From assembly GCA_965204255.1 (NCBI GenBank), contig CBDBEG010000052.1, positions 256,225 to 320,224 on the forward strand: DNA of 64,000 nucleotides, in the 5' to 3' direction. The stretch comes from Rubritalea sp. Its GTDB lineage: Bacteria > Verrucomicrobiota > Verrucomicrobiia > Verrucomicrobiales > Akkermansiaceae. Of the stretch, positions 2,542 to 62,600 are shown piece after piece (position 1 is the stretch's first letter; each line of letters opens with the position of its first letter). A program made the position numbers and the translations under genes. The notes under the pieces are model-generated. The model was not told the DNA's origin. It did no database searches and was given only the letters and a program-made list of their open reading frames with translations.

Positions 2542-3228
2542 ATGATAACCAACTGCTGCAGCATTGTTCTTGGAGTGTTCTTCCTGTTTGCCTGCTCTCT
2601 GCAATGCATTAGTGGCAGCACTTCTCCGGATTCATCCCTAGGAAATGTGGTCCTCTATTCTGTGACAAGAAGTACAAACCTGAATGTCACCCAGTCCATA
2701 AGTCTTGCCAACAACATCATGCAGGGTCTGAAACAAAAGGGAATAAGTGACAATGATTGCTGTGGGTGCAAGAAACGATCGGAAGACTACCTGATTCACC
2801 GATTCAAGACCGATTCACGAAACCCTGACTGCCTGCAAGTCAAGAAGATGCTTGAAGGTAACAATGCATCAGTCTTTGCCGTAACAGCTGACATTAGTTG
2901 TGTAAGGCCTACTTATGACTCTGAGTGCTTCCCAAGCAACAGCAAAGCCTCGTGTTCGTGGAGACAAAGTTTTGAGCCCATCCAGAATGCAAACAGTGAC
3001 ATTTTCCCCAAGTACGCTGTGAATACTGTGTGCAAGGGTTGCAATGAGTATGATTTTGCGTGCATGAATCAGCACAGGCAGTGCTACACCTACAAACAGG
3101 AAGTTGGATTTTATGTCCTGCAGAGAACAAACAGGTGCAGCAGTGATGGGTATGAAGAATGGGTGAGCACCTACACTCGACGGTACCTCAATGCGGCTTG
3201 CAGTTGCCAGTTCCTCCGCCGTGATTAG
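2542..3228 (+). CDS. Secreted Cys-rich protein, paralog A copy 1; IL-17-like cystine-knot C-terminal domain (inferred)
   Basis: Complete 228-aa ORF with signal peptide MITNCCSIVLGVFFLFACSLQCISG and sequons NVT and NAS. Motifs are ASCSW...DIFPKYAVNTVCKGC...AACSCQF. TATATAAA lies 92 bp upstream. Differences from A2 in the mature region are all synonymous (tcc/tct, aaa/aag, gtg/gta, aag/aaa, cag/caa). Confidence 0.8.
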   Translation: MITNCCSIVLGVFFLFACSLQCISGSTSPDSSLGNVVLYSVTRSTNLNVTQSISLANNIMQGLKQKGISDNDCCGCKKRSEDYLIHRFKTDSRNPDCLQVKKMLEGNNASVFAVTADISCVRPTYDSECFPSNSKASCSWRQSFEPIQNANSDIFPKYAVNTVCKGCNEYDFACMNQHRQCYTYKQEVGFYVLQRTNRCSSDGYEEWVSTYTRRYLNAACSCQFLRRD

Positions 3229-4065
3229 TAAAGTAGAATATCTGACCACAATAGTCAGTCATACCTGCAGACTCTAGTCTTTAGTATCATTTATAGCATA
3301 TAATTATCATGTATATAGTTGTAGCAGGTTACAGATCTTGATTGTACACATAGCTATCGTTTAAGAATATGAAATCATTTTGTTAAACAGTGAAGAAATG
3401 TGACCAATCACTTCGAGACGGTTATATGTTCTGTGCAGCAACATGTGACACACTAACAACCACTAGTCTAGCCAAGTTCTTGGAGACAAACACCTGCACT
3501 TCATAGAAAAGACCAAATGTATTCAAAGTTGTCTGAGACACTATAGCTAAGTTCAAATAATTTGCTGCAAATCAGTGCTAAGTTATAAGGTCTACTGATT
3601 TGCTCAACTCTTCATTTCCTCATAGCTACCTTTGACCATGCATTCCAGCTTTCTACAATCTAGTTGTACACATCAACTCATTGTGTGAAGAAAAGGTTGA
3701 AGCTAAATTATAGTCAGGCTCAATGTCTATTGGTGAATATTTTACGCACAATTTACTGGTACTATATCAGTTCTTACATTATGGAAGTTTCTAACGTAGT
3801 TGCGTTAAAAAACCTAGCTACTACTTGAAGAGCTGAATGCAAACCAGGACTCCCAAAGTGGGCTGATTAGTCTTCTGAACTGTCTTCATTCACACCATAC
3901 AAACAGGTAAGTAGCTGGTAGCTTGTGAACTAAGCTGTTAACTATCCCTGCTTCATGCAGGACAAGTATTTACATGCAAGCTGACTGTTTGCAACAGACA
4001 GCAGTACATAACAGTGCAACATATGAACATTACAGAACAATATTTTCGCAGATTAAAACTTATAG

Positions 4066-4166
4066 CAGTCGCGCACGTTTCGCACGAGATCACGTGACAT
4101 GAGCGGGACGAACATGGTCCGGGCACGTGCCCGGCCAGGCCCGGCCTTCGCTACGCCTGTTGCTGT
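4066..4166. repeat. CpG-rich palindromic element (short form) immediately upstream of locus D
   Basis: It contains atcacgtgac and the 12-bp palindrome gggcacgtgccc (4121-4132). It is present in U1-U4 and U6 and absent from U5 (42050-42100). Confidence 0.6.
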
Positions 4167-4221
4167 AATCAACTACTTTCATATGCATTTGAAATCTAAC
4201 ACTCACCTGTATTGATCAAAC

Positions 4222-4983
4222 ATGTCCACCTATAGCTACTGTACTGTTGTAGCTATTCTTCTTGGAGTCGACATTCTATTTGTCTGCTTTCTGCATTGCA
4301 GTATTTTCATCCCTAGGAAATGTTGTCCTCCATCCTATGATAAACTGAAAGTCTTGATGATGACATCGACATCCTGCAGGACATCAATCACAATGACATC
4401 CTTAAGAACATCAACATCCTCAAGCACTTAGGAAATGTGGTCCTCCACTCAGGTTGGGAGCGACATAACTGGAAATCTTGCAGTGACATCCTGCAGGACA
4501 TCAAAAAAACAAGGAAATGTTTTCCCCCCACATTATTCAGGTTGGGACATAACTGAAAGTCCTGACATTAACCTCTTGCAGGACATCAACCAAAAACCCA
4601 AAATATGGTCCCCACACCATTCAGGTTGCCCGGGGACATAACTGAAAGTCTTGACAATGACATCCTCAGCTGCAGGGCATCAAACCACAATGATATCCAC
4701 ATCCTACAAGACATCAACCGAAAGGCAAGGAAATATAGTCCTCCATTCAGGTTGGGACATAACTGAAAGTCCTACAGTGACATCCCACATGCAGGATATC
4801 AACCAAAAAGCAAGGAATATGGTCTTGACGATGACATCTTGCAGGCCCAACATCAACCAAAGTGACAGGAATCACAATACAAGGTTGATAGTAAATTTTG
4901 CGTGGTGTGGTGCAAGGTACATATTGCAGTTAGGATCTAGGGGGCCTGCTTCTCCCAGTGTTTATTGCACATATAGGAGCTAA
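4222..4983 (+). pseudogene. Locus D copy 1: gene A-derived 5' end plus amplified 82-129-bp repeat, no cystine-knot domain
   Basis: The 5' UTR and signal-peptide region aligns to gene A (aacactcacctgta..ATG..ttcttggagt..ctgcaatgca..tccctaggaaatgtggtcctc). The reading frame is broken into 3 ORFs. A 1-bp deletion relative to D2 (gataaactgaaag) changes the product. AATAAA is at 5024-5029. Confidence 0.45.
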
Positions 4984-5433
4984 TGTTAAAATGAAAGGTG
5001 TCTGTGCACATAGCTACCCCTGCAATAAATAATGTCACGTCCATTGCTTCATTTCATTGCCAGTGGCTAAATCTGGCAGCCCAGTTGGAAGGCATGCTTC
5101 AGTATGTAAAACTAATACTGGTGCAGTTTAAACAAGGTGTCAACGATGAACACGATTAACATCTGCTAGACTCTCTCTCTCACTTTTCCAGATGGTGAGA
5201 GATGGACTGGCTTGACATAGGCACTGGCTTGGTGTAGGTTCTGACATAGCGACCTTCCAGCTGCAGAGCAATCTCCCCCTAACTACCAAAACAGAGATGG
5301 CCATATCTGAACTGGGACTCACAGGTAATGGTTCTGGTCTGAATCAAGAAGACTTGAGAACATTCAACCCAAAGATGTAAGAAAAAACATTGCAACCCAA
5401 AATTTTAGGGCATGGTTGTCATTTATCTTTGTA

Positions 5434-5550
5434 TGCGCATGCGCAGTTCCAAAAATGGCCGTGAAAACTTGTCCGCTACCTAAGGTCAGGGTTCGACTAG
5501 TCTCGCGTAGCAATACTCTCGCCGACGTGAGTCTGGCTACGCGAGATTAG
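5434..5550. promoter_or_regulatory. Conserved CpG-rich block: TGCGCATGCGCA palindrome, CCAAAAATGG, 15-bp-stem hairpin
   Basis: tgcgcatgcgca is at 5434-5445 and also at 14809, 23385, 32753, 43679 and 56079. ccaaaaatgg is at 5449-5458. ctagtctcgcgtagc (5497-5511) pairs with gctacgcgagattag (5536-5550). Its function is unknown. Confidence 0.3.
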
Positions 5551-6003
5551 AGTTCGACACACCATGGTTCACACAGGTCAGTTGGGTAAGAATCCTGCAT
5601 GCAGTTATATCATTGCCGTGCATTGCCATGTAAAGTCTTGCATCAAAGCGTTGACCATCTAAAACACGTAGTCTTGTTGACGCCAATTAAGTTTCGCCAT
5701 GCAGATGAGTGAATTAACGCAGGGCAATTTTATTGAGGCTATATCTGTTAGGCTACAGAACTCGCTCCCCCACCCACGCAACTCGACCTCCCGGTCTCCA
5801 CCCCAGATTGAGAACGGAAAACAGTGTTCCGCTTTGCAATTCACTCGTTCTGGCGCAATATCATTTTTCACTTTCTACGACATTATGGGAGGAAGATCTG
5901 AATTCTATGAGAATATTCCCATGCAAACCTTACCGACTTTCCGACTCTGTCAAGCACTGCACCGCTATGCATACAGTGGTTAACGCAAGTCCGAGGCTCT
6001 AGC

Positions 6004-6011
6004 TATAAATA
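6004..6011 (+). promoter_or_regulatory. TATA box of gene B1
   Basis: TATAAATA lies 117 bp upstream of the ATG and is followed by the small palindrome ctgcatgatatgcag. Confidence 0.6.
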
Positions 6012-6120
6012 TCCTATATCTGCATGATATGCAGTCAAACCAACGAGCTACTCCAATCCCACCACCAGTTGTGTCAGAGAAAGAATTACATTACCAATAC
6101 TCTAAGTATCATCAACAGCA

Positions 6121-6777
6121 ATGTATCTAAAATCGTTTATCTTTCTCAGTTTGTGCGCATATTCTCTCATTTCAGCGAATCCAGTCTCTGTCAATTTGAG
6201 CAGCGGTGACACTACGGCGGAACGGCCGACCTCAATTACTGGACTATCAGGTGATCAACCGAAGCCGACCCACACCACGCATAAGCGGCAGGCAGGCGAC
6301 AGTAGTGTAAATTCGGGCGGCGGACCGGACAACCGTCCTGCAAGCGGTACTGCATTATTCAATGCCGTCCAGCTAAACCCTCTCTATGCTCTCTCGGAGA
6401 TGGCAGAACTTAAACATGCCGATGCTATCACTCGCCGCAAACGCCAGCAGACCGGCTCCAATGTAAACGTCATTATACCAAGACAGATTTGCAGTAGTGT
6501 ACTCAGCATTCTGAATGATGACTCCATTCATGTTGCATGCCCGTCTAGCGGACACAACAATGTGTGGTATCAATGCGAATACCAAGAAAATCGAAACCCG
6601 CGTTATTTGATACAGGCTACGAGTTGTCAAACTGATCGGTCATGCGGGAGTCAGTGTCCCACAAATGGACAATGCAGGGACCATAATGCTACTGTGACCA
6701 TTGCAGAACATACCGGAGACTTTACTTGGCGAAGAGTTTCCACTCAGATCAGACTAGGCTGCCAGTGCCGACTCTAG
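6121..6777 (+). CDS. Secreted preproprotein, paralog B copy 1; IL-17-like/neurotrophin-like cystine-knot domain after an RRKR site (inferred)
   Basis: 218-aa ORF with signal peptide MYLKSFIFLSLCAYSLISA and a Pro/Gly/Ser-rich pro-region. RRKR is at residues 105-108 (nt 6433-6444). The following 110-aa domain has 9 Cys and the motifs VWYQCEYQENRNPRYLIQATSC...LGCQCRL. TATAAATA lies 117 bp upstream. Confidence 0.8.
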   Translation: MYLKSFIFLSLCAYSLISANPVSVNLSSGDTTAERPTSITGLSGDQPKPTHTTHKRQAGDSSVNSGGGPDNRPASGTALFNAVQLNPLYALSEMAELKHADAITRRKRQQTGSNVNVIIPRQICSSVLSILNDDSIHVACPSSGHNNVWYQCEYQENRNPRYLIQATSCQTDRSCGSQCPTNGQCRDHNATVTIAEHTGDFTWRRVSTQIRLGCQCRL

Positions 6778-7898
6778 TAGCCAATGAGGTATCAAGTTAG
6801 ATGCTATAGCTAGGGTAGTTTTGAATTTTTATAGCAGGAAGAGAACAGAACTATAGCTGCGGCATTCACTCACTTTTAGATCTATAATTATGCTGTATTA
6901 CTGTGATTATATATACCTTGAACTATATCACTTATGGACGATGACTTTTATGCATGTTTGAAATATTGTTTAATCCGGACAATCATACAGTGGAATCCGA
7001 CACCCCTCAACAGCGGATACCCGCGATATAACGGGCAATTTTGACAGTCTTGACTGTCGCGCGCGCGGTCCCAATTGAACGCAAACAACGCCTAACGAAC
7101 CCAATTTGGCGGACACCTGTCGACCTTTTCATGAAGACTGTCCACCATCGTTGCTGTAGATAACAACTTGACGTTAGATTAGCGCTGTTATTCGTAGTAC
7201 TATAGCCTCTGCTTAGCCTTCCCTGCCAGTGTACAGCAAAGTACAGCTCTGGAAACGCAGCCCCGCGTTGTCACGCTCAACAGCCCGATTACACATACCA
7301 CGCCTACCGCTCGCTGTAATGAACAAAATGTTGGTTCCCAATGGTGTCCGTTATTGTCACTTCCGATAAATCTGACTGCGTGCTGTATTTCCGTTTTTAC
7401 CGCATATATATAGGCAAACTCCGAGACATTTATAGCTTTTTCACAGCGGTATCCGGCCTTAGTGGTCGCGCGCCGTATGGGAATACCAAGGAAGTTCTCT
7501 TTACAAGGTAACATACTGCACCTTGCATGGCCTAACGTAGTAAACACCTTTTCCTGTTCTGATACAATTTAATTTGCACTCCAAGTGGATAGAAAAATTA
7601 TGTAGTAAGGTCTGTGCATGACATTTAGGCTGATCTCCTCCATGCACATATGTGAGTTAATTAAAATGGTGAATTATATACGCACTGACGTTTGAAATAG
7701 CTCAGGATTGTGTTCAAAGTACTTCATTTGAACTTCCTATTAAATACAAGTAGCTATATAACCAAGACAGAAATCATGCGAACTATAAAACTATCTGTAT
7801 ATTGTCACTGCTATCTAATGGCAAACTTACAAGCTAATATATGACAACAATCTATATATAGCTACACTTCTCTCAATACTCCTTTCTAATGGTTGTAG

Positions 7899-8570
7899 CT
7901 ATGATCGGCTGTAGTAACTACATCCGACCACCAGTGTCTCCGTCACTGGTTCCCACGAGTCGAATCCACTTGAATCACACTGCCTTTGCCGCTTCAGAAC
8001 TTTAGCTGTGATGGAAACTGGCGACGAACTGCATGAACATTCACTGCATGCGACATTGACTACAAATCTTGGAAACACATCCTCCCCAAGGTCTTTAATA
8101 TTGTGACTCCAAGTGCACTTTTGTGCAGTATTTTGTGAAAAGCATTGTGAATCATATCGCAAACTTCCATACTCTGTGTTAGTTGTCAGCACACAAGCTG
8201 GAGGTGAGCTGAGATGTGAGTCCGGTAGTGGAACTCTGGTGAGATTAGATCCAGAGACATTGCAGTGTTGGTAATACCGGTCTAGGATGTATGACTCGTT
8301 TCGCTTCTTGCAGTTGTGGCACGGCCCCATCCCTGCTCCTGCCAAACCTCCAGCAATCATGTTAGCCATTGCAGCAGTGTTGATGTTTCCTGTCTGTTGG
8401 ATTGAGAGCCCAGCCACTGCTTGTGCTACAACAACAGAGATGCTGTTGTTGGTGACAGATGATCCTTGTGGTGTGGGCAGTGTGTAGGCTGTGTGCAGAT
8501 GAAATGCACACAGAGCTGCAATGATTAGCAGTTGCATGCTTGCTTGTGTGGTAAACATGATGTTTTTCAC
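7899..8570 (-). CDS. Secreted Cys-rich protein, paralog C copy 1; IL-17-like (inferred), related to A
   Basis: 223-aa ORF with hydrophobic N-terminus MQLLIIAALCAFHLHTAYT and sequons NNS, NES, NVS and NLT. It shares CxxCKKRxExY and DSxCF...CxW with gene A. Motifs are KCTWSHNIKDLGEDVFPRFVVNVACSEC...VVGCSYY. A TATA box lies ~105 bp upstream on the minus strand. Confidence 0.8.
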   Translation of the reverse strand: MKNIMFTTQASMQLLIIAALCAFHLHTAYTLPTPQGSSVTNNSISVVVAQAVAGLSIQQTGNINTAAMANMIAGGLAGAGMGPCHNCKKRNESYILDRYYQHCNVSGSNLTRVPLPDSHLSSPPACVLTTNTEYGSLRYDSQCFSQNTAQKCTWSHNIKDLGEDVFPRFVVNVACSECSCSSSPVSITAKVLKRQRQCDSSGFDSWEPVTETLVVGCSYYSRS

Positions 8571-11910: not shown

Positions 11911-12597
11911 ATGACAAACAACTGCTGCAGCATTGTTCTTGGAGTGTTCTTCCTGTTTGCCTGCTCTCTGCAATGCATTAGTGGCAGCACTTCTCCGGAT
12001 TCATCCCTAGGAAATGTGGTCCTCTATTCTGTGACAAGAAGTACAAACCTGAATGTCACCCAGTCTATAAGTCTTGCCAACAACATCATGCAGGGTCTGA
12101 AACAAAAGGGAATAAGTGACAATGATTGCTGTGGGTGCAAGAAGCGATCGGAAGACTACCTGATTCACCGATTCAAGACCGATTCACGAAACCCTGACTG
12201 CCTGCAAGTCAAGAAGATGCTTGAAGGTAACAATGCATCAGTCTTTGCCGTAACAGCTGACATTAGTTGTGTAAGGCCTACTTATGACTCTGAGTGCTTC
12301 CCAAGCAACAGCAAAGCCTCGTGTTCGTGGAGACAAAGTTTTGAGCCCATCCAGAATGCAAACAGTGACATTTTCCCCAAGTACGCTGTGAATACTGTAT
12401 GCAAAGGTTGCAATGAGTATGATTTTGCGTGCATGAATCAGCACAGGCAGTGCTACACCTACAAACAGGAAGTTGGATTTTATGTCCTGCAGAGAACAAA
12501 CAGGTGCAGCAGTGATGGGTATGAAGAATGGGTGAGCACCTACACTCGACGGTACCTCAATGCGGCTTGCAGTTGCCAATTCCTCCGCCGTGATTAG
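11911..12597 (+). CDS. Paralog A copy 2 (IL-17-like, inferred)
   Basis: 228-aa ORF. The mature sequence is identical to A1. The N-terminus reads MTNN rather than MITN. Confidence 0.8.
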   Translation: MTNNCCSIVLGVFFLFACSLQCISGSTSPDSSLGNVVLYSVTRSTNLNVTQSISLANNIMQGLKQKGISDNDCCGCKKRSEDYLIHRFKTDSRNPDCLQVKKMLEGNNASVFAVTADISCVRPTYDSECFPSNSKASCSWRQSFEPIQNANSDIFPKYAVNTVCKGCNEYDFACMNQHRQCYTYKQEVGFYVLQRTNRCSSDGYEEWVSTYTRRYLNAACSCQFLRRD

Positions 12598-13594: not shown

Positions 13595-14351
13595 ATGTCC
13601 ACCTATAGCTACTGTACTGTTGTAGCTATTCTTCTTGGAGTCGACATTCTATTTGTCTGCTTTCTGCATTGCAGTATTTTCATCCCTAGGAAATGTTGTC
13701 CTCCATCCTATGATAAAACTGAAAGTCTTGATGATGACATCGACATCCTGCAGGACATCAATCACAATGACATCCTTAAGAACATCAACATCCTCAAGCA
13801 CTTAGGAAATGTGGTCCTCCACTCAGGTTGGGAGCGACATAACTGGAAATCTTGCAGTGACATCCTGCAGGACATCAAAAAAACAAGGAAATGTTTTCCC
13901 CCCACATCATTCAGGTTGGGACATAACTGAAAGTCCTGACATTGACCTCTTGCAGGACATCAACCAAAAACCCAAAATATGGTCCCCACACCATGCAGGT
14001 TGCCCGGGGATATAACTGAAAGTCTTGACAATGACATCCTCAGCTGCAGGGCATCAAACCACAATGATATCCACATCCTACAAGACATCAACCGAAAAGC
14101 AAGGAAATATAGTCCTCCATTCAGGTTGGGACATAACTGAAAGTCCTACAGTGACATCCCACATGCAGGATATCAACCAAAAAGCAAGGAATATGGTCTT
14201 GACGATGACATCTTGCAGGCCCAACATCAACCAAAGTGACAGGAATCACAATACAAGGTTTATAGTAAATTTTGCGTGGTGTGGTGCAAGGTACATATTG
14301 CAGTTAGGATCTAGGGGGGCCTGCTTCTCCCAGTGTTTAATGCACATATAG
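13595..14351 (+). pseudogene. Locus D copy 2
   Basis: The first ORF is 111 aa (MSTYSYCTVVAILLGVDILFVCFLHC...). Repeat units start at 13689, 13805, 13887, 13974, 14103 and 14188. Each carries ataactga, which places stops in two of the three frames. Confidence 0.45.
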
Positions 14352-15488: not shown

Positions 15489-16142
15489 ATGTATCTAAAG
15501 TCGTTTATCTTTCTTTTGTGCGCATATTCTCTCATTTCAGCGAAGCCAGTCTCTGTCAATTTGAGCAGCGTTGACACTACGGCGGAACGGCCGACCTCAA
15601 TTACTGGACTATCAGGTGATCAACCGAAGCCGACCCACACCACGCATAAGCGGCAGGCAGGCGACAGTAGTGTAAATTCGGGCGGCGGATCGGACAACCG
15701 CCCTGCAAGCGGTACTGCATTATTCAATGCCGTCCAGCAAAACCCTCTCTATGCTCTCTCGGAGATGGCAGAGCTTAAACATGCTGATGCTATCTCTCGC
15801 CGCAAACGCCAGCAGACCGGCTCCAACGCAAACGTCATTATACCAAGACAGATTTGCAGTAATGTACTCAGCATTCTGAATGATGACTCCATTCATGTTG
15901 CATGCCCGTCTAGCGGACACAACAATGTGTGGTATCAATGCGAATACCAAGAAAATCGAAACCCGCGTTATTTGATACAAGCTACGAGTTGTCAAACGGA
16001 TCGGTCATGCGGGAGTCAGTGTCCTACAAATGGACAGTGCAGAGACCGTAATGCTACAGTGACCATTGCAGAACATACCGGAGACTTTACTTGGCGAAGA
16101 GTTTCCACTCAGATCAGACTAGGCTGCCAGTGCCGACTCTAG
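15489..16142 (+). CDS. Paralog B copy 2
   Basis: 217-aa ORF. A 3-bp indel in the signal peptide gives FLLCAY instead of FLSLCAY. It differs from B1 by about 10 synonymous and 7 replacement changes. Confidence 0.8.
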   Translation: MYLKSFIFLLCAYSLISAKPVSVNLSSVDTTAERPTSITGLSGDQPKPTHTTHKRQAGDSSVNSGGGSDNRPASGTALFNAVQQNPLYALSEMAELKHADAISRRKRQQTGSNANVIIPRQICSNVLSILNDDSIHVACPSSGHNNVWYQCEYQENRNPRYLIQATSCQTDRSCGSQCPTNGQCRDRNATVTIAEHTGDFTWRRVSTQIRLGCQCRL

Positions 16143-16420: not shown

Positions 16421-17216
<796 letters not shown>

Positions 17217-17494
17217 TGTTGGATTGAGAGCCCAGCCACTGCTTGTGCTACAACAACAGAGATGCTGTTGTTGGTGACAGATGATCCTTGTGGTGTGGGC
17301 AGTGTGTAGGCTGTGTGCAGATGAAATGCACACAGAGCTGCAATGATTAGCAGTTGCATGCTTGCTTGTGAGGTAAACATGATGTTTTTCACTCAAGATA
17401 GCTTTGAGGCAGATTTGCGATAGAACTCTTTATCATTCACGTCCTGTCTCTTGTTGTTGCTGCTAACTGATGACAGTGGTGTTTCCATGCTCTC

Positions 17495-24064: not shown

Positions 24065-24718
24065 ATGTATCTAAAGTCGTTTATCTTTCTTTTGTGCGCA
24101 TATTCTCTTATTTCAGCGAAGCCAGTCTCTGTCAATTTGAGCAGCGGTGACACTACGGCGGAACGGCCGACCTCAATTACTGGACTATCAGGTGATCAAC
24201 CGAAGCCGACCCACACCACGCATAAGCGGCAGGCAGGCGACAGTAGTGTAAATTCGGGCGGCGGATCGGACAACCGCCCTGCAAGCGGTACTGCATTATT
24301 CAATGCCGTCCAGCAAAACCCTCTCTATGCTCTCTCGGAGATGGCAGAGCTTAAACATGCTGATGCTATCTCACGCCGCAAACGCCAGCAGACCGGCTCC
24401 AACGCAAACCTCATTATACCAAGACAGATTTGCAGTAATGTACTCAGCATTCTGAATGATGACTCCATTCATGTTGCATGCCCGTCTAGCGGACACAACA
24501 ATGTGTGGTATCAATGCGAATATCAAGAAAATCGAAACCCGCGTTATTTGATACAGGCTACGAGTTGTCAAACGGATCGGTCATGCGGGAGTCAGTGTCC
24601 TACAAATGGACAGTGCAGAGACCGTAATGCTACTGTGACCATTGCAGAACATACCGGAGACTTTACTTGGCGAAGAGTTTCCACTCAGATCAGACTAGGC
24701 TGCCAGTGCCGACTCTAG
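24065..24718 (+). CDS. Paralog B copy 3
   Basis: 217-aa ORF, near-identical to B2 (V to G in LSS(V/G)D; NANLII). Confidence 0.8.
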   Translation: MYLKSFIFLLCAYSLISAKPVSVNLSSGDTTAERPTSITGLSGDQPKPTHTTHKRQAGDSSVNSGGGSDNRPASGTALFNAVQQNPLYALSEMAELKHADAISRRKRQQTGSNANLIIPRQICSNVLSILNDDSIHVACPSSGHNNVWYQCEYQENRNPRYLIQATSCQTDRSCGSQCPTNGQCRDRNATVTIAEHTGDFTWRRVSTQIRLGCQCRL

Positions 24719-33432: not shown

Positions 33433-34089
33433 ATGTATCTAAAGTCGTTTATCTTTCTCAGTTTGTGCGCATATTCTCTCATTTCAGCGAAGCCAGTCTC
33501 TGTCAATTTGAGCAGCGGTGACACTACGGCGGAACGGCCGACCTCAATTACTGGACTATCAGGTGATCAACCGAAGCCGACCCACACCACGCATAAGCGG
33601 CAGGCAGGCGACAGTAGTGTAAATTCGGGCGGCGGATCGGACAACCGCCCTGCAAGCGGTACTGCATTATTCAATGCCGTCCAGCAAAACCCTCTCTATG
33701 CTCTCTCGGAGATGGCAGAGCTTAAACATGCTGATGCTATCTCTCGCCGCAAACGCCAGCAGACCGGCTCCAACGCAAACGTCATTATACCAAGACAGAT
33801 TTGCAGTAATGTACTCAGCATTCTGAATGATGACTCCATTCATGTTGCATGCCCGTCTAGCGGACACAACAATGTGTGGTATCAATGCGAATACCAAGAA
33901 AATCGAAACCCGCGTTATTTGATACAAGCTACGAGTTGTCAAACGGATCGGTCATGCGGGAGTCAGTGTCCTACAAATGGACAGTGCAGAGACCGTAATG
34001 CTACAGTGACCATTGCAGAACATACCGGAGACTTTACTTGGCGAAGAGTTTCCACTCAGATCAGACTAGGCTGCCAGTGCCGACTCTAG
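33433..34089 (+). CDS. Paralog B copy 4
   Basis: 218-aa ORF. It has the B2-type mature region with the B1-type signal-peptide length. Confidence 0.8.
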   Translation: MYLKSFIFLSLCAYSLISAKPVSVNLSSGDTTAERPTSITGLSGDQPKPTHTTHKRQAGDSSVNSGGGSDNRPASGTALFNAVQQNPLYALSEMAELKHADAISRRKRQQTGSNANVIIPRQICSNVLSILNDDSIHVACPSSGHNNVWYQCEYQENRNPRYLIQATSCQTDRSCGSQCPTNGQCRDRNATVTIAEHTGDFTWRRVSTQIRLGCQCRL

Positions 34090-34898: not shown

Positions 34899-37258
34899 TT
34901 TTTTTTTTTTTAACAACCAAATTTGAGGAATACAAGGAGTAGCATAATAAAGCTAATAAGGGTCTTGCATCCTATATAAAGACACGACAATTACTAGCAT
35001 AGAAAACAGCACACTACAATAACAAAATGAACAGCAATAAGTAATGAATAAGGTGCTATACAGTTTAGCTGACGATGCTCTCAGACATGTATCTTAATAA
35101 CTGTCTCTTGAAAGCCTGCAAGGTTTCACACTCGGTTATTTCATGTGGGAGAGAGTTTCAATAATGGATAGCTGATGGGTAGAATGAGTTGAAAAATAAC
35201 TCGGTTCTTGCAAATGGTTGCACTAATGATGAGTCCACAACAGACCACGTTCTCACAGAAGCTGGAGCTGCAACTCTTCGAGTTGTTGGAGGGGAGACAC
35301 AAAAGGAGATACCATTGAGCATACTAAATAATTGACATTGCTTGAGGTATTGCCTTCTGCTAGCAAGAGATTGTAGCTCTGCTCTCTCCAGCAACTCACT
35401 GTAGCCAGTATTTGGAGACCACTGTTTTAGGCAGATTTTCAAGGCAAAACTTTGGACTCTTTCAAGCTTATCGATATCTCTTTTGAGGTGTGGGTCCCAT
35501 ACACTACAGGCATACTCAAGGTGAGGACGTACTAACATTTTGTAGAGATAAAGTAGAGTATCTGAGGACGTACTAACATTTTGTAGAGATAAAGTAGAGT
35601 ATCTGAGTGTGAGCCCTGAGAAAATCTCCTGTAAAGTAGACCAAGCACCTTTCTCGCATTCTGACAGACAATGGTAATGTGAGCTGACCATGAGCCATCA
35701 TATGAGAAAGTTACTCCAAGGTATTTAAATGATGTCACTCTCTGTAAAGCCTGATCTTGGATCAAGAGCTGAGTGTTTGGTTGACACGGTTGGGATTTCT
35801 TTGAAAATAATACATAGCAGCATTTACTAGCATTTAGCTTTAAATTGTTGTCCTCAGTCCAAAGACAGATGGTATTAATGTCATCTTGTATCGATTGATA
35901 GTCGAGAGGAGATTGAATTACTTTATACAATGCAATGTCATCAGCATAGATTGACACTTGGCCATCAATGTTGGCACATGTGATCCCGTTGATGTATATG
36001 AGGAAGAGCAAAGGGCCTAAAACAGACCCTTGTGGTACACCAGAAGATACCCTAACTTGAGTTGACTGGGAACCATTGACTACCACAAACTGATTTCTCT
36101 CAGTGAGGTAGCTGTAGATAAGGTTGAATAAATACAGATTAACATTGATGTCTATCAGCTTTTGCAGGAGAAGTGCATGTGGGACAGAGTCAAAGGCCTT
36201 GCTGAGGTTGAAGAACACAGAGACGACTTCGACGCCCTGGTCTAGGGATTGTAGTATTCCATTAGAAAGAGCAAGTAGAGCAGAAGTAGTTGACTTTCCT
36301 GACGAGAAACCAAACTGGTAAGGTGAGATAGGTGAGTGAACTTTGAGATGGTCAGAGACCAATGTGTATATGATCCTTTTGAAAACCTTACTCAATATAG
36401 GAAGTATTGAAACAGGTCTGTAATTTCCAGGGTTTGTATTGCTTCCTTTTTTGGGAATAGGTACAATCCGGGCAGTCTTCCAACAGTCAGGAAACGATCC
36501 AGTCCGAATAGACATATTAAACAATCTTGTAAGTGTAGGTGTAGTAATATCAGCAGTAGCCTTGAGCATTCTCGCTGAGACATCATCAGTACCTGAAGAT
36601 TTGTGTATATCAAGATTTACAATAAGGTCATAAACCATGTGGTCAGTACAAAGAAAGTTGGTGGGACAGTTCTCTGGGTCCGTGGTAAACCAAGATTTAA
36701 CAACTGTCGACAGGTGCTTGGCATGGTTAAAGTTATTGTAGAACTCATTATTCAGTACTTCTGCTTTAGAAACATCATCAGTAACTTGCACATCATTGTG
36801 AATTAGAGTAGGAATTGTGGAGCGATTATTAGCCAGACGTTTAATCATTTTCCAGAAAGACTTTTTATCAGCTGTGTGTAGTTTCTGAAAATATTTGACT
36901 TTTGACACTCTTATCGCTGACACAATTGCATTTCTTGTATACTTGTATTCTGCAAGCTTATATTCATTCCCAGATTTCTTGTAAGCAGCAAACAGCCGAT
37001 TCCTTCAACGAATGGCTTTCATGATGTCATCAGAAATCCAAGGAGGGCGATTGTCAATAATGATTCTTTTCTTGGGAATGCATTCAGACATAGTATGAGT
37101 GAAATGATTGTACCAATTCATCCAAGAAGTGTCTACTCCATGCTGGTCATTTACAAGAGAGTCCCAGTGTAATTGAGACAGGAAGTTATTTGCCTTCACA
37201 AAGTCGGCTTCCTGATAGCACCAAACTGTTTTACTGACACAATTTAACAAGTGCCAAG
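34899..37258 (-). mobile_element. 5'-truncated non-LTR retrotransposon (RT domain, CR1/L2/Jockey-like)
   Basis: T13 at 34899-34911 marks the tail. The 463-aa ORF has FFNLSKAFDSVPH, YADDIALY, FKYLGV and LVRPHLEYACSVWDP. No endonuclease domain is present. It is private to U4, and the flanks rejoin the unit sequence (caccttttcc / gttctgatac). Confidence 0.9.
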
Positions 37259-44280: not shown

Positions 44281-44570
44281 TTTAATGTCACTTGCAGACG
44301 CAACCAGCCTTAACAGGCTTATGAGACAATAGCTATATGATGTATACAAAAAAGGGGTTCGGTGGTAATTCTTATGTATAACACAAAATGTAGGAGGATG
44401 GTTTATATAACTATAAATACAGCCAAGAAGAAAATGTGGATGGGCTTTTGTTATATGGTGTGCTATGTTAATAAAATAAAAGGTGAAGAGGTGAAAACTG
44501 TACTGGAGGATCAAAATTAACGACTATCTTGTGTCAGGGTCCCAGAAGACAACAAAACACTTGGTGGTAA

Positions 44571-46052
44571 AAGACAGACGGAACAAGTCTTCCCCTGGTG
44601 ACCCTCTCGGGACAACCAGAGGGCAGACTACAAGAAAGACAGACAAGTCTTCCCCTGGCAACCCTCTCGGGATAACCAGAGGACAGACTACAAGAATGAC
44701 AGACAAGTCTTCCCCTGGCAACCCTCTCGGGATAACCAGAGGACAGACTACAAGAAGGACAGACAAGTCTTCCTCTGGCAACCCTTTCGGGATAGCCAGA
44801 GGACAGACTACAAAAAGGACAGACAAGTCTTCCTCTGGCAACCCTTTCGGGATAACCAGAGGACAGACTACAAAAAGGACAGACAAGTCTTCCTCTGGCA
44901 ACCCTTTCGGGATAACCAGAGGACAGACTACAAGAAAGACAGACAAGTCTTCCTCTGGCAACCCTTTCAGGATAGCCAGAGGACAGACTACAAAAAGGAC
45001 AGACAAGTCTTCCTCTGGCAACCCTTTCGGGATAACCAGAGGACAGACTACATAAAGGACAGACAAGTCTTCCTCTGGCAACCCTTTTGGGATAACCAGA
45101 GGACAGACTACAAGAAAGACAGACAAGTCTTCCTCTGGCAACCCTTTCGGGATAACCAGAGGACAGACTACAAGAAAGACAGACAAGTCTTCCTCTGGCA
45201 ACCCTCTCGGGACAACCAGAGGACAGACTACATAAAGGACAGACAAGTCTTCCCCTGGCAACCCTCTCGGGATAACCAGAGGACAGACTACATAAAGGAC
45301 AGACAAGTCTTCCTCTGGCAACCCTCTCGGGAAAACCAGAGGACAGACTACATAAAGGACAGACAAGTCTTCCCCTGGCAACCCTCTCGGGAAAACCAGA
45401 GGACAGACTACATAAAGGACAGACAAGTCTTCCCCCGGCAACCCTCTCGGGACAACCAGAGGACAGACTACATAAAGGACAGACAAGTCTTCCTCTGGCA
45501 ACCCTCTCGGGAAAACCAGAGGACAGACTACATAAAGGACAGACAAGTCTTCCCCTGGCAACCCTCTCGGGACAACCAGAGGACAGACTACAAAAAGGAC
45601 AGACAAGTCTTCCCCTGGCAACCCTTTCGGGATAGCCAAAGGACAGACTACATAAAGGACAGACAAGTCTTCCTCTGGCAACCCTCTCGGGATAACCAGA
45701 GGACAGACTACAAGAAGGACAGACAAGTCTTCCTCTGGCAACCCTCTCGGGATAACCAGAGGACAGACTACAAGAAGGACAGACAAGTCTTCCTCTGGCA
45801 ACCTTCTTGGGATAACCAGAGGACAGACTACAAAAAAGGACAGACTACAAAAAGGACAGACAAGTCTTCCTCTGGCAACCCTCTCGGGATAACCAGAGGA
45901 CAGACTACAAGAAGGACAGACAAGTCTTCCTCTGGCAACCCTCTCGGGATAACCAGAGGACAGACTACAAAAAGGACAGACTACAAAAAGGACAGACAAG
46001 TCTTCCTCTGGCAACCCTCTTGGGATAACCAGAGGACAGACTACAAGAAGGA
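44571..46052. repeat. 60-bp minisatellite, about 25 copies
   Basis: Sequence lines 44641-45781 all begin agacaagtcttcc, giving an exact 60-bp register. The unit is ggacagacaagtcttcctctggcaaccctctcgggataaccagaggacagactacaagaa. The register shifts near 45830 and 45960. Confidence 0.95.
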
Positions 46053-46805
46053 CAGGGAGGTAGTACTGGAGACCCATATAAGAATATTGATACTACTTTA
46101 AAAGGAGCGAACGTCTTTTGGAGTACATGGAAAAAACAAGTTTACAAATTTGCCTTGGTTGTTGGGCCAATTTCAAAATCAAGAGGACTTTTGTAGTTGC
46201 ATTTAAGCATAGGAACTTGTTTCCCTCTGTCTTGCACATAGCATTGAATAGGTCCTTTCTTTCCTCTTTTAAGGCATGACAGTGTAGTAGAAAGTGTTCT
46301 TCATTCTCTACATCAGTGGAGCATAGCTTGCATACTCTTTGCTGGAGAGGTCGCGCAGCACATCCAAATCGGCCGGTTTCTACCTCCAAAGGCAGGCAGC
46401 CCATCCTCAGAGCAGCCATTACTCTTCTCCAGTCTGCTGGGATAGGGCCCGTAACGAATGCTTCGGCCATGGGTAGGGGCTTGATCTCTCTATAGAGCCT
46501 GAGTCTGCCTGTTGTCTCGGAGCCTCTGGGGAAGGTCCATAGGGATCTTTTCCATTCTTGTAATTCACTATCAGTCAAAGCGTCCCATGCAGAATCCAGG
46601 AAGTCCTTCCGGTTGAATAACATCAGGTCAGGATTGAACTGTGTCTCCTTGAGTAGGTCCTGGGCATCTGCTGCCCAGTTATGTACTCCCCTGTCAGCCA
46701 AGTTGCAGCTCCACCTGAATATATCTCCAGTCAGCCTCCCATCAGGTAGAGTGCAGAGCCTGTGCCAAAGTCTTAAAACAGCAAGTCTGATATGTACTCT
46801 CATTG

Positions 46806-46922: not shown

Positions 46923-47576
46923 ATGTATCTAAAGTCGTTTATCTTTCTTTTGTGCGCATATTCTCTCATTTCAGCGAATCCAGTCTCTGTCAATTTGAGC
47001 AGCGGTGACACTACGGCGGAACGGCCGACCTCAATTACTGGACTATCAGGTGATCAACCGAAGCCGACCCACACCACGCATAAGCGGCAGGCAGGCGACA
47101 GTAGTGTAAATTCGGGCGGCGGATCGGACAACCGCCCTGCAAGCGGTACTGCATTATTCAATGCCGTCCAGCAAAACCCTCTCTATGCTCTCTCGGAGAT
47201 GGCAGAGCTTAAACATGCTGATGCTATCTCTCGCCGCAAACGCCAGCAGACCGGCTCCAACGCAAACGTCATTATACCAAGACAGATTTGCAGTAATGTA
47301 CTCAGCATTCTGAATGATGACTCCATTCATGTTGCATGCCCGTCTAGCGGACACAACAATGTGTGGTATCAATGCGAATACCAAGAAAATCGAAACCCGC
47401 GTTATTTGATACAAGCTACGAGTTGTCAAACGGATCGGTCATGCGGGAGTCAGTGTCCTACAAATGGACAGTGCAGAGACCGTAATGCTACAGTGACCAT
47501 TGCAGAACATACCGGAGACTTTACTTGGCGAAGAGTTTCCACTCAGATCAGACTAGGCTGCCAGTGCCGACTCTAG
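46923..47576 (+). CDS. Paralog B copy 5
   Basis: 217-aa intact ORF. A 2.55-kb LINE/minisatellite insertion sits in its TATA box, and the box is regenerated at 46806. Confidence 0.75.
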   Translation: MYLKSFIFLLCAYSLISANPVSVNLSSGDTTAERPTSITGLSGDQPKPTHTTHKRQAGDSSVNSGGGSDNRPASGTALFNAVQQNPLYALSEMAELKHADAISRRKRQQTGSNANVIIPRQICSNVLSILNDDSIHVACPSSGHNNVWYQCEYQENRNPRYLIQATSCQTDRSCGSQCPTNGQCRDRNATVTIAEHTGDFTWRRVSTQIRLGCQCRL

Positions 47577-57185: not shown

Positions 57186-57839
57186 ATGTATCTAAAGTCG
57201 ATTATCGTTCTTTTGTGCGCATATTCTCTCATTTCAGCGAAGCCAGTCTCTGTCAATTTGAGCAGGGGTGACACTACGGCGGAACGGCCGACCTCAATTA
57301 TTGGACTATCAGGTGATCAACCGAAGCCGACCCACACCACGCATAAGCGGCAGGCAGGCGACAGTAGTGTAAATTCGGGCGGCGGATCGGACAACCGTCC
57401 TGCAAGCGGTACTGCATTATTCAATGCCGTCCAGCTAAACCCTCTCTATGCTCTCTCGGAGATGGCAGAACTTAAACATGCCGATGCTATCTCTCGCCGC
57501 AAACGCCAGCAGACCGGCTCCAATGCAAACGTGGTCATACCAAGACAGATTTGCAGTAGTGTACTTAGCACTTTGAATGATGACTCCATTCATGTTGCAT
57601 GCCCGTCTAGCGGACACAACAATGTGTGGTATCAATGCGAATACCAAGAAAATCGAAACCCGCGTTATTTGATACAGGCTACGAATTGTCAAACGGATCG
57701 GTCATGCGGGAGTCAGTGTCCCACAAATGGACAGTGCAGAGACCATAATGCTACAGTGACCATTGCAGAACATACCGGGGACTTTACTTGGCGAAGAGTT
57801 TCCACTCAGATCAGACTAGGCTGCCAGTGCCGACTCTAG
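57186..57839 (+). CDS. Paralog B copy 6
   Basis: 217-aa ORF. It shares B1-type variants (AVQLNP, SSVLS, DHNATV) and has private changes. Confidence 0.8.
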   Translation: MYLKSIIVLLCAYSLISAKPVSVNLSRGDTTAERPTSIIGLSGDQPKPTHTTHKRQAGDSSVNSGGGSDNRPASGTALFNAVQLNPLYALSEMAELKHADAISRRKRQQTGSNANVVIPRQICSSVLSTLNDDSIHVACPSSGHNNVWYQCEYQENRNPRYLIQATNCQTDRSCGSQCPTNGQCRDHNATVTIAEHTGDFTWRRVSTQIRLGCQCRL

Positions 57840-59670: not shown

Positions 59671-62600
59671 AATGCACATTCATATATTTGAGCAAAATTA
59701 TACAAACTTATAGCTACCAACATTATATTGTGGGTATATTCTCCAAATTTTTTTGGTATATAGCTACAATGTAACTGCACAATATAGAGCGTATGGTATG
59801 TACACTTGCTTCCAGTCTCACCCATTTTTAAAAATTTCTGTGCATATAGCTGTTCTCAGGTGTCCAAAGTTTCACTAGCATGAGAGATCAATATATATTG
59901 ACTGCAAATCACTGCCTAGAAGTAGTATATGATTAATTAGTGTCATATCTTCTGCCTTTAGAGTCTAATAACTATAAGTAGTATAGGCATGTAGCTAGTG
60001 TAATGAGTGTGTGGCATGGTTGAGTTTACACACTATAGGTATTAGGTATTGGGGTGGTACTGACTTACAGTGTATAATATAGGAGAATGTAGAATATTGC
60101 AGGGGAAAGGGGTGCTGAAGCACCCGTTGTGGGGTGAGCAATAACAGCAATATTGCATGGCTAGCTAAAGCTACATCAGTGCATAGTTCCAGATCTGATA
60201 GGCCATGCATATAGCTGGCAGGAATTGTCATTCCTTATGGCCACAAGAATGACTGAAGCCTGTCAACTAATGAATGAGTTATGGATTCACCAGGAATCAC
60301 TCCATTTCATTCCATAGCTATACATACTATAAAAGTGAAACAGCTAGGTATCAATGCATTTTCATCATTCACATTCAGGAATTCAACAGGTACATACCTA
60401 TCCTACTAAATATTAATTCTACTACCAAGTAAGGTTTGCATATGGGTATTTTCAGTCAAACTGGGAACAGTGGGAAGAAGAACTGCTTCTTGTATATGAA
60501 GTTGAAAACAATGAAAGGGACCACATGTTTATGGACACTTGTAAGTAATTACGTTTTTCTTTTTTTTTTTTTCTATAAAAATTCTTGCATTAGTTGCAAA
60601 GGGTACACAATATAGCTGTACAATAGCTAATTTTGCATGTATGCCCAAAGGTTAGATTTAAAGGATGATACAGAAGTAGGTAAAGGTACATGTGCAGTAA
60701 ACTTATTCCAATTATGAATGGTACGGGGTACAAAGGAATTATTAAAGCTACTTGTATGTGCATGTGGACAAACAAAGAGATGGTGAGACTGTGACCTTGT
60801 GACTCTGGGAGTTTGCTCTACAAAAATGCCAGTGGGAAAGTGAAAGAGCCCTTGTACTATTTTAAACATGGTACATAAGTACAGGTATAATCTGCATTGC
60901 TGTAGTGTTGGTAGAAAGCACAACTGCAGTAGATCATTATAACTGCTGTTCCACTGCTTTGTACACATTCTTAAAGCAAATTTTTGCACACCCTCCAGGG
61001 AATTTATTTCTCCAGTCTTGTAGGTGTTCCAGACTTGACTTGCGTACTCAAGATGGGGATGAACAAGTGAGATGTACATCTGGAGTAGGCTCTCCGGGCT
61101 AGAACACTGATAGAAACGACGGTAAATCAGGCCTGTTAGCTTTCTTGCCTTACCACAGATTGATTGTATATGCTGTGACCATGATAGGTCTGATGACAAG
61201 AGGATCCCAAGATATTTGTAGGAGTTCACCTCTTGCAGTGGCTCACGACAGAGGTACAATGTTGGTGGGCAGACACCAGTTCGTTTTCTAGTCACCCGCA
61301 TGAAATTACACTTTTGAATGTTAAATTGTAAGTAATTAGCATCAACCCACTCTGATATCTTGTTGATATCTTCTTGCAAATGGGCATAGTCAGCACTGTT
61401 AGAAATGGGTCGGTAGAGCAGCATGTCATCCGCATATAAAGTTAGGTGACTGTTAGATGAGAGGGTAATAGATGTAATCCCATCGATGTATAACAGAAAT
61501 AACAGTGGCCCGAACACTGATCCTTGTGGGACGCCAGACAACACAGGGAGAGTGTTTGACGAACTGCCACCCACTACCACCTGCTGCTTCCTGTCAGAAA
61601 GGTAACTGTAAATCCATTTTACAAGTAACTGGTTGACTTGCAAATCCTCTAGCTTTCCTATCAGGGCACGGTGAGGAACTGAGTCGAATGCCTTCTTAAA
61701 GTCGAAAAACACTGCACCAACTTCACTTCCTGTTTCAAGTATTTCAAACCAATTATGAGTGGTGTCCAGTAGGGCAGTGATTGTGGACTTTCCACTCTGG
61801 AATCCCCACTGTGAAGCAAAAATTGGTTGTGTCACCATCAGATGTTGTAATACTAGGTTAGCGATGTGTTTCTCCAGAAGTTTGCTCAACACTGGCAATA
61901 GCGAAATTGGCCTGTAGTTAGTGGGATTTCCTTTGTCGCCAGATTTGGGAATGGGTACAATGTTGGATTGTTTCCACATTGTTGGGAAGCAGCCAGTGGA
62001 GATTGATTTGTTGAAGAGTTTAGTGACCGGGGTAACAATGCTTGTTGCAGTGGCTTTTAACATCCTACCAGAGATTTGATCCTGGCCGCTAGCTTTAGAA
62101 ACGTCAATATTTTGAAGAAGATCCAAAACATCATCCTCTGTGCATAAGAGATGTTCTTGGCTTCCCTCCAGCAAATGCAGGTGTTCTGCAGACTCATAGG
62201 GGCCAGACAAAGGAGGCAGTGATGTGTTGAAACAATTAGAGAAATGATTATTCAACATGTTTGCTTTGTCCAAGTCATTGTCAGCACATCTGTCACCTAA
62301 CTGCAGTGTGGGAATTGTTGATTGTTCTTTCCTGAGATACTTCATTGTCTTCCAAAATTGCTTTTTGTTTCCACTATTGATGTTTCTTGCAAAGAATGAC
62401 TGTTTGGAGTTTTTCAATATAGATGTAACTTTATTTCGCATTCTTTTGTATTTTCTCCACAGCTCAGTTGACCCTGATGACCTTGCTCTTCTGAATAAGC
62501 TGTTCCATTTTTGCATTGCATGTTTTAAGTTTTTTGATAACCATGGAAGATTTTTAATTATGTCTTGGTAGAGTGCACTTTGGGATACACTCATCCATGA

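Follow-up and report, generated by a model that had tools for sequence, protein, structure and literature searches.

A tandemly repeated gene, probably from a demosponge, that appears to encode a divergent IL-17-family precursor with a furin-type site

Background

Few cytokine families can be traced across the animals; IL-17 is among them, and how it originated is currently a matter of debate. We describe here a gene, B, that occurs six times in a 64,000-nucleotide stretch of contig CBDBEG010000052.1 (positions 256,225 to 320,224 of the forward strand, assembly GCA_965204255.1, deposited as Rubritalea sp.); this whole stretch is called the window below. An earlier reading of the letters, the original prediction, had seen in gene B an IL-17-like core motif combined with a prepro architecture in the manner of NGF and Spaetzle, and had proposed it as an intermediate linking the two superfamilies. 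We consider it likely that gene B is a divergent IL-17-family pre-pro-cytokine of a demosponge, most likely cut at a furin-type site.

The closest described systems are the IL-17s of invertebrates. A complete three-disulfide knot has been published for them (PMC4517768, PMC8353272) and is designated type T1A in PMC11087794, and tandem arrays of IL-17 genes have also been published (PMC5457136, PMC8353272). For the sea urchin, a mean identity of 94.9% is given among 11 SpIL17-1 genes; the IL-17 genes there contain one to three exons, with several subfamilies on a single scaffold and eight conserved Cys that include a 'Ser-to-Cys' pair, and SpIL17 is induced by infection (PMC5457136). Trunk, PTTH and CFSH have been grouped either within IL-17 or beside it, and two of them, CFSH and PTTH, are ligands of IL-17 receptors (PMC11087794). 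As to sponges, no IL-17 gene was found in Amphimedon, the sole sponge of one survey (PMC8353272), and a 2024 PNAS paper, which derives the IL-17 pathway from a Trunk-Torso-like 'neurotrophin' pathway, reports the IL-17 pathway as absent in poriferans and places its origin 'after poriferans but before cnidarians' (PMC11087794). In the literature that we searched, a limited library, we found no sponge IL-17 ligand.

Gene B resembles the invertebrate CPW/T1A IL-17s (Chen 2024, Huang 2015, Saco 2021) in several respects: a domain recognised by profile and predicted fold, six knot Cys, among them the pair exchanged for Ser in vertebrates, the motifs (N)RYPRY...A.C and GC.C, a presumably secreted product of about 200 residues, and an arrangement in tandem arrays. 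It differs from them in lying below Pfam detection, in the Trp of CPW, which is shifted by a 6-residue insert (CPSSGHNNVW), in having a furin-type site and, before it, a long pro-region that contains a conserved motif, and in its phylum, Porifera. With the SpIL17 arrays (PMC5457136) it shares the head-to-tail arrangement of many near-identical IL-17 genes; unlike them, it has a pro-region and a furin site, none being described there, and the repeat unit of the window adds two knot paralogs, genes A and C.

An IL-17-type domain in gene B

The anatomy of the first copy is as originally described, with a signal-peptide-like start, a pro-region containing HKRQ, the tetrabasic RRKR at 6433-6444 and a C-terminal domain of 110 residues with nine Cys (Table 1). 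These Cys, all downstream of RRKR, are residues 124, 140, 152, 169, 175, 179, 185, 214 and 216.

A search of about 5.8 billion proteins returned only 10 homologs of gene B, at 98 to 50% identity, and an exhaustive search of 1.84 billion cluster representatives with a gene B profile gave 24 proteins. Among these 24 matches, P0041 (571 amino acids, repetitive, no knot) looks unrelated, P0035 matches the pro-region only, and P0026 was not included; a word-indexed search with the family alignment brought one extra fragment only. The distant members have a common layout of signal peptide, variable region, NPLYA motif, in many cases a tetrabasic site, and a knot of the form C-x(15-25)-CPWxYxCxY-x2-NRYPRYxIxAxC ... 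GCxC. All 10 of the relatives that were scanned match the Pfam IL17 family (PF06083); seven exceed the curated cut-off, with a best expectation value (E) of 7.8e-12. P0031, one of the relatives, qualifies under two models at once, Noggin at 25.7 bits and IL17 at 24.7 bits.

When a profile of gene B and its relatives was compared with all PDB sequences, IL-17F was found at E 9e-10, IL-17A at about 2e-3 and IL-25 at E=1. The only other knot protein was PDGF-B, at a non-significant 0.48, and no NGF, neurotrophin, Spaetzle, coagulogen, Noggin or PTTH chain appeared at E<=10. With the mature-domain profile, hhalign gave 96.3% for IL-17F (E 1.8e-9), 23% for Bombyx PTTH and 4.7% for NGF, and hmmsearch with this profile gave 40.8, 14.6 and 12.7 bits for the same three, whose sequences may not be exact; the IL-17F alignment agrees with the PDB-derived one. 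The same profile scored 13 taxon-labelled IL-17s from the PMC4517768 supplement (nematode, annelid, mollusc, echinoderm, crustacean, vertebrate) at 21 to 43 bits; a Daphnia IL-17 homolog has 26.6 bits. A PDB search with gene B alone had antibody light chains at E ~0.03, which we rejected as chance.

The fold predicted for residues 109-218, modelled with AlphaFold2 from a 25-sequence alignment, is likewise IL-17-like, also by the fold test that the original prediction had named for its own refutation. The model (mean predicted local distance difference test score, pLDDT, 83.8; predicted template-modelling score, pTM, 0.72) has an N-terminal helix at 120-131 and two long beta-hairpins, and the top 50 matches of a Foldseek comparison with the PDB are all IL-17A, IL-17F or IL-25 (probability 1.00, template-modelling score, TM, 0.45 to 0.6, best E 3e-3). 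The resemblance first noted as a core motif can thus be upgraded: as judged from the profiles and the predicted fold, the C-terminal domain of gene B is a real IL-17 homolog and not just the bearer of a motif.

The Cys pattern agrees with this assignment. In the profile and family alignments, C140 corresponds to S50 of IL-17F (the Ser of 'SPW'), C185 to S90, C169 to C72, C175 or C179 to C77, C214 to C122 and C216 to C124. C140 and C185 are invariant in all 25 family members, and the first knot Cys pair is spaced by 5 to 9 residues, against 4 in IL-17. The knot pairs that we infer are C140-C185 (1/4), C169-C214 (2/5) and C175 or C179 with C216 (3/6), so that the pattern, read from the alignment, is that of a complete three-disulfide knot of the published ancestral type T1A (PMC11087794).

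The nine Cys had been taken as compatible with a disulfide-linked dimer. The count itself is correct, and the odd number is lineage-specific: position 201 is Phe in the window species and Cys in 17 of the 25 members, the commonest pattern having 10 Cys. In IL-17F the aligned residue is C107, the interchain Cys. The odd count therefore appears to be a recent lineage-specific loss and no design feature, and the change from Cys201 to Phe may leave Cys124 free.

A separate change is seen in a subfamily of about 50% identity from Agelas dispar and relatives (P0006-P0010), in which the CGSQC insert and the last Cys, C216 (CQC to CQH), were lost together (aligned to gene B residues 170-216). This coupled loss of Cys 3 and Cys 6 matches the passage from T1A to the published type T1C (PMC11087794).

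The furin-type site and the pro-region

As the original prediction had pointed out, the RRKR string is kept in each of the six gene B copies; all six are intact. This conservation is nevertheless no evidence of constraint, because the copies have pairwise DNA identities of 96.2 to 99.8% and most of their non-coding flanks are equally similar. Moreover, 7.7% of shuffled versions of the gene B protein contain R-x-[KR]-R by chance, so that the string alone says little, and it is the conservation of its position in divergent homologs that constitutes the evidence. In an alignment of 11 homologs reaching down to 50% identity, R105, K107 and R108 never change, in contrast to the variable pro-region around them; the upstream motif NPLYA(F/L)SxMAELxHA is likewise invariant in this close-homolog alignment. 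Over the family, 15 of the 25 members share R-x-[KR]-R at this alignment column, namely 8/8 close and 7/17 distant ones, some of them only 25-30% identical, and one further distant member has QKKR there. Of the three Pfam-positive paralogs that lie in tandem in a second host, two have RRKR and one has KQKR. Gene B thus carries the motif of a convertase substrate, RRKR followed by Gln, in a position conserved among homologs. The furin-type site looks real, its conservation supports a furin-type proprotein architecture well, and we infer cleavage after RRKR.

Substitution rates differ between the two parts of the protein. Between the window and the related locus L001, the ratio of non-synonymous to synonymous substitutions (dN/dS) lies at 0.59-0.83 for the pro-region and at 0.21-0.28 for the mature domain; taking the array copies and the comparison with L001 together, the mature domain ranges over 0.11-0.28. 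A knot with low dN/dS next to a pro-region with high dN/dS is, as far as sequence can tell, the pattern of a discarded spacer beside a constrained ligand. The pro-region is of low complexity, S, T, A, G, P and N making up 49 of its 85 residues. By contrast with its surroundings, the upstream motif is the most conserved part of the N-terminal half and is recognisable in most of the distant members, with or without a basic site. The motif itself is probably functional, for instance as a folding aid or in latency. In the low-confidence full-length model it falls in helices 77-85 and 87-108.

At the N-terminus, M1-I7 of gene B are invariant in the 11 homologs, and other Agelas species have homologs of equal length that start with MYLKSFIF. 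The K55-R56 pair of HKRQ could be a second processing site; it is not kept in distant family members. A further pro-region feature, a conserved Cys (C-[NDE]-P, in some CEPC) at alignment column 285, upstream of the NPLYA motif, is found in 18 of the 25 members; the segment is missing from gene B of the window and from its closest relatives.

How unusual would such an architecture be? Neither furin, a prodomain nor cleavage is mentioned in PMC4517768 or PMC11087794, PMC5457136 lacks the word 'furin' and its single 'cleavage' concerns the signal peptide, and PMC8353272 lacks 'propeptide', a cleavage passage there concerning the signal peptide. Nothing relevant to a furin site or prodomain in IL-17 proper was found in the library searched. 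Isolated strings exist in known sequences: RRKR or RTKR precedes the knot in one Capitella and one Pinctada IL-17, and in Xenopus IL-17C the IL-17 domain is preceded by RRKRKRR. The precursors of Trunk, PTTH and CFSH consist of a signal peptide, then a precursor-related peptide, and a mature knot that follows a dibasic or furin-type cleavage site, and PTTH combines an odd Cys count with a disulfide-linked dimer. Since these proteins are of the prohormone type, the prepro design of gene B is in keeping with the IL-17/Trunk group, and no connection with NGF has to be invoked. A conserved propeptide with a furin-type site is the design of Trunk, PTTH and CFSH, the nearest relatives of IL-17, and did not turn up for IL-17 proper in the literature searched.

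A second knot family linked to gene B

Genes A and C, which accompany gene B in the array, are paralogs of each other (E 5e-12). Their products share a C-x-C-K-K-R-[S/N] string that is invariant (in A at residues 73-80) and could be a dibasic processing site, and they have a knot-like C-terminal half. An A/C-type profile built from several hosts aligns with the B-family profile in hhalign (95.9%, E 6e-9), and this is the only significant link: A/C profiles show none with IL-17F or PTTH directly, only weak matches to Pfam IL17 or Noggin, and no significant match in the PDB, where the only knot match is Bombyx prepro-PTTH (E 0.11). By this profile comparison, A/C is a second, more divergent family of secreted Cys-rich knot proteins, homologous to the B family.

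The arrangement of an A/C-type gene directly 5' of a co-directional B-type gene is also found in L007 (Xestospongia muta), in L017 and L018, and in L016 (Tara). L017 and L018 belong to a second long-read assembly from a different host, in which three Pfam-positive IL-17 genes follow the A/C-type gene in tandem. Because the pair recurs across hosts, we consider this association of two knot-ligand genes to be old.

Host of the gene family

The homologs lie on contigs named by sample code, and we resolved these codes via the sample table of the Reef Microbiomics Database (PMC13083261 supplement). The close homologs whose source was looked up come from Agelas tissue metagenomes only: P0001 (98% identity to gene B) from Agelas tubulata, Grand Cayman; P0004 (81%) from A. 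clathrodes, St Croix; P0005 (74%) from A. sventres, Belize; and P0007 (50%), the same protein in four A. dispar specimens from two localities and in one 'Agelas sp.'. More distant members include P0030 (Pfam IL17 7.8e-12) from Xestospongia muta, on a 20-kb scaffold with ubiquitin and TIR genes, and P0044 from Halichondria panicea.

The A. tubulata contig is 97.9-98.4% identical in DNA to the window over 2.3 kb, non-coding sequence included, which is as near as the repeats of the window are to one another. The contig that contains the window measures 2.3 Mb and carries '37x' in its name. In L001, a 3.2-Mb contig of another sample, the order C-A-B is kept at 77-84% DNA identity. As the divergence of the homologs follows the host species, a host gene is indicated rather than that of a shared epibiont, and we conclude from these identities that the source of the window is Agelas tubulata or else one of its sibling species (Porifera, Demospongiae, Agelasida).

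One further member, P0045, lies on L016, from Tara Pacific sample SAMEA6027428, which is labelled Millepora. The same sample also yields a genome of Poribacteria, typical sponge symbionts, so that it may contain sponge tissue; the host of P0045 is ambiguous, and we did not count it as a cnidarian member.

Proposed mode of action and alternative readings

If gene B acts as we propose, its signal peptide (residues 1-19) would direct the protein into the secretory pathway and be cleaved off. A furin-type proprotein convertase would then cut after RRKR108 and free the knot from the fast-evolving residues 20-108, the conserved motif at the end of the pro-region probably aiding folding or holding the ligand latent. 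The released ligand of 110 residues, Gln109-Leu218, would fold as a T1A invertebrate IL-17 knot with three disulfides, dimerise as other IL-17s do, and may signal via a receptor with a fibronectin-III ectodomain. The six-fold amplification, with A and C linked, resembles the IL-17 arrays of sea urchins and molluscs, which give a fast, high-dose response.

Several observations weigh against this interpretation. Among the marks of an IL-17, gene B has the profile and intermediate homology, the knot Cys, the extra pair of T1A and the predicted fold, and lacks a direct Pfam match: hmmscan of gene B itself against Pfam-A returned no family at E<=10. Its IL-17 membership is accordingly drawn from profile and transitive evidence together with a predicted fold, for which TM is only about 0.5. 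AlphaFold2 of the full-length protein (11 sequences) gave a pLDDT of 38 and is uninformative. Chen et al. (PMC11087794) find no IL-17 receptor or pathway in Porifera. The host was assigned by an indirect route, from the sample metadata of homolog contigs and not from a marker gene on the window contig. No AATAAA or ATTAAA occurs within 700 nucleotides 3' of any of the six gene B copies (for copy 1, 6778-7477). Lastly, 10 of the 25 members have no furin consensus at the RRKR column and still have the upstream motif.

This last point bears on a reading in which RRKR is not cleaved, the N-terminal region stays on the protein and the basic patch serves another purpose, such as glycosaminoglycan binding. 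Those 10 members imply that the N-terminal region need not always be removed, and the motif region may be retained in some paralogs; that the motif is the best-conserved segment of the N-terminal half, suggesting a function of its own, fits as well. For gene B we nevertheless think it unlikely, as the exact P4 Arg, P2 Lys and P1 Arg are invariant in close homologs, which goes beyond mere positive charge, and as the upstream region evolves about three times faster than the knot, as is usual for a discarded propeptide. We give still far less credit to the idea of a recently amplified, non-functional segment whose ORFs persist only because the copies are young. The copies are indeed 96-99.8% identical with similar flanks, retroelements lie in the array and one copy of gene C is disrupted. 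However, all six gene B ORFs are intact, the mature-domain dN/dS stays within the low range given above, at least four further species of Agelas carry intact orthologs, and L001 preserves the gene order.

Gene B might also work as a Trunk/PTTH-like prohormone, rather than as an IL-17 cytokine, and act via a Torso-like receptor tyrosine kinase with a fibronectin-III ectodomain, a reading raised because sponges are reported to be without IL-17R and CIKS. Trunk and PTTH are cut at basic sites, and the sole PDB knot match of the A/C family, though non-significant, is Bombyx prepro-PTTH. PMC11087794 names Trunk as the closest relative of IL-17 and reports that Porifera, while without the IL-17 pathway, have receptor kinases with fibronectin-III domains and knot 'neurotrophins'. 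The similarity to PTTH is weak, however (23% against 96% for IL-17 in hhalign, 14.6 against 21-43 bits), in a comparison that covered Bombyx PTTH and the Daphnia IL-17 homolog; CFSH, PTTH and Trunk are arthropod and bilaterian hormones whereas gene B is a sponge gene, and genes with a SEFIR domain exist in the sponge Dysidea avara. We therefore judge this reading improbable, about as much so as the absence of cleavage.

The proposal of an evolutionary intermediate or convergent form between IL-17 and NGF, Spaetzle or coagulogen fares much worse, and we reject it. Gene B shares with these proteins the cystine-knot superfamily and a common design, in which a signal peptide, a pro-region and a tetrabasic site precede a knot of about 110 residues that is released at the basic site; it would have three disulfides, as NGF does, and hhalign aligns the last strand and the C-x-C of the B profile with NGF. 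The prepro, furin-type part of the original prediction thus stands, with its positionally conserved site before the knot, whereas the affinity to NGF and Spaetzle was not detected: NGF reaches 4.7% and 12.7 bits against 96.3% and 40.8 bits for IL-17F, and no neurotrophin, Spaetzle or coagulogen appears in the PDB search (E<=10), in the top 50 fold matches or in Pfam (PF00243 for the neurotrophins). The local likenesses to NGF that had been put forward do not hold up either. The segment ICSNVLSIL, which is that of copies 2-5 (copy 1, 6121-6777, reads ICSSVLSIL), is a predicted helix in the gene B model, and the NGF segment compared with it, VCDSVSVWV, is a beta-strand. The likeness between FTWRRVSTQIRLGCQCRL and AAWRFIRIDTACVCVL is that of the last strand and C-x-C which cystine knots have in general; the corresponding string in IL-17F is VLVTVGCTCV. 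NGF, Spaetzle and coagulogen also differ from IL-17 in dimer geometry and in receptors (Trk/p75, Toll). Finally, a third disulfide is already known in invertebrate IL-17s (PMC4517768, PMC11087794).

Keeping the IL-17-family reading, we lean, if only slightly, towards a broader view: Agelas, Xestospongia and Halichondria would encode genuine furin-activated IL-17-family ligands, linked with the sister A/C knot family, and the ligand, its architecture and its split from a Trunk/PTTH/Noggin-like sister would predate the divergence of sponges. If this is true, the origin of the IL-17-type ligand shifts to the base of animals, contradicting its published placement. A sponge ligand raises the question of its receptor, in an animal reported to be without IL-17R and CIKS. 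The linked A/C and B genes offer a place to test how two knot families diverged, and the B family provides candidate cytokines for research on the symbiosis of sponges and microbes.

The tandem array and its neighbourhood

The window has a G+C content of 42% and contains a eukaryotic tandem array of six repeats, with a unit of about 8.6-11.4 kb made up of three types of intronless ORF: gene A (+ strand, 228-229 amino acids), gene B (+, 217-218) and gene C (-, 223). In each unit gene B starts about 2.9 kb downstream of gene A, on the same strand. A mutation hot spot was sought among the six gene B copies and none was found, the differences being evenly spread. A TATAAA lies at -117 in copies 1-5 of gene B and at -110 in copy 6. 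An Rfam scan of the window gave no RNA family.

Table 1. Coordinates of gene B, its parts and its neighbours (positions are those of the window unless a locus is named)
Feature	Position	Strand	Description
Predicted signal peptide of gene B	6121..6177	+	residues 1-19, MYLKSFIFLSLCAYSLISA, then NP; n/h/c layout by inspection
Pro-region	6178..6432	+	residues 20-104 (85 amino acids); S/T/A/G/P/N-rich, fast-evolving
HKRQ	6280..6291	+	residues 54-57; K55-R56 pair invariant in 11 close homologs
Pro-region motif QLNPLYALSEMAELKHA	6370..6420	+	residues 84-100; (near-)invariant in close homologs
RRKR, CGCCGCAAACGC	6433..6444	+	residues 105-108; furin/proprotein-convertase consensus R-X-K/R-R, then Gln109
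Predicted mature ligand	6445..6774	+	residues 109-218 (110 amino acids); helix 120-131 with Cys124, then IL-17-type cystine-knot core
IL-17 domain proper	6538..6774	+	Cys140 to C-terminus; from profile alignment to IL-17F
Gene B copy 1	6121..6777	+	single-exon ORF, 218 amino acids and stop; uninterrupted translation
Gene B copy 2	15489..16142	+	217 amino acids
Gene B copy 3	24065..24718	+	217 amino acids
Gene B copy 4	33433..34089	+	218 amino acids
Gene B copy 5	46923..47576	+	217 amino acids
Gene B copy 6	57186..57839	+	217 amino acids
TATAAA box	6004..6009	+	117 nucleotides 5' of the ATG of gene B copy 1; sequence match only
Gene A copy 1	2542..3228	+	228 amino acids; upstream partner of gene B; other copies at 11911, 20490, 29860, 40755, 52186
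Gene C copy 1	7899..8570	-	223 amino acids from GTG; paralog of A; other intact copies at 25844, 37578, 48706
Retroelement and insertion ORFs	35532-36923, 60627-62594, 44524-46803	-	two RVT_1 ORFs and the 517/236-amino-acid pair
A/C-B gene pair, window	2542-6777		
A/C-B gene pair, L007	7877-10514		
A/C-B gene pair, L017	8643-10717		
A/C-B gene pair, L018	7090-9038		
A/C-B gene pair, L016	543-4310		

Gene C is intact in four units, and its true start is probably the ATG at MFTTQ. In unit 2 it is represented by a chimeric ORF (16529-17392, -), of which the first 58 residues are C-like and the remainder is retroelement-like, so that this copy was disrupted by an insertion. Two ORFs with a reverse transcriptase domain (RVT_1) lie in the array, the retroelement insertions being later than the array, and a pair of ORFs of 517 and 236 amino acids, with faint zinc-finger matches only, is inserted in units 4-6. 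These insertions account for the longer units and for the divergent upstream flank of gene B copy 5. Between genes A and B are found ORFs (13595-13930 and 14025-14351, +, with equivalents elsewhere) that consist of degenerate internal repeats like the 5' end of gene A, as in LGNVVLHSGW against LGNVVLYSV, and that probably represent decayed remnants of partial gene A duplications.

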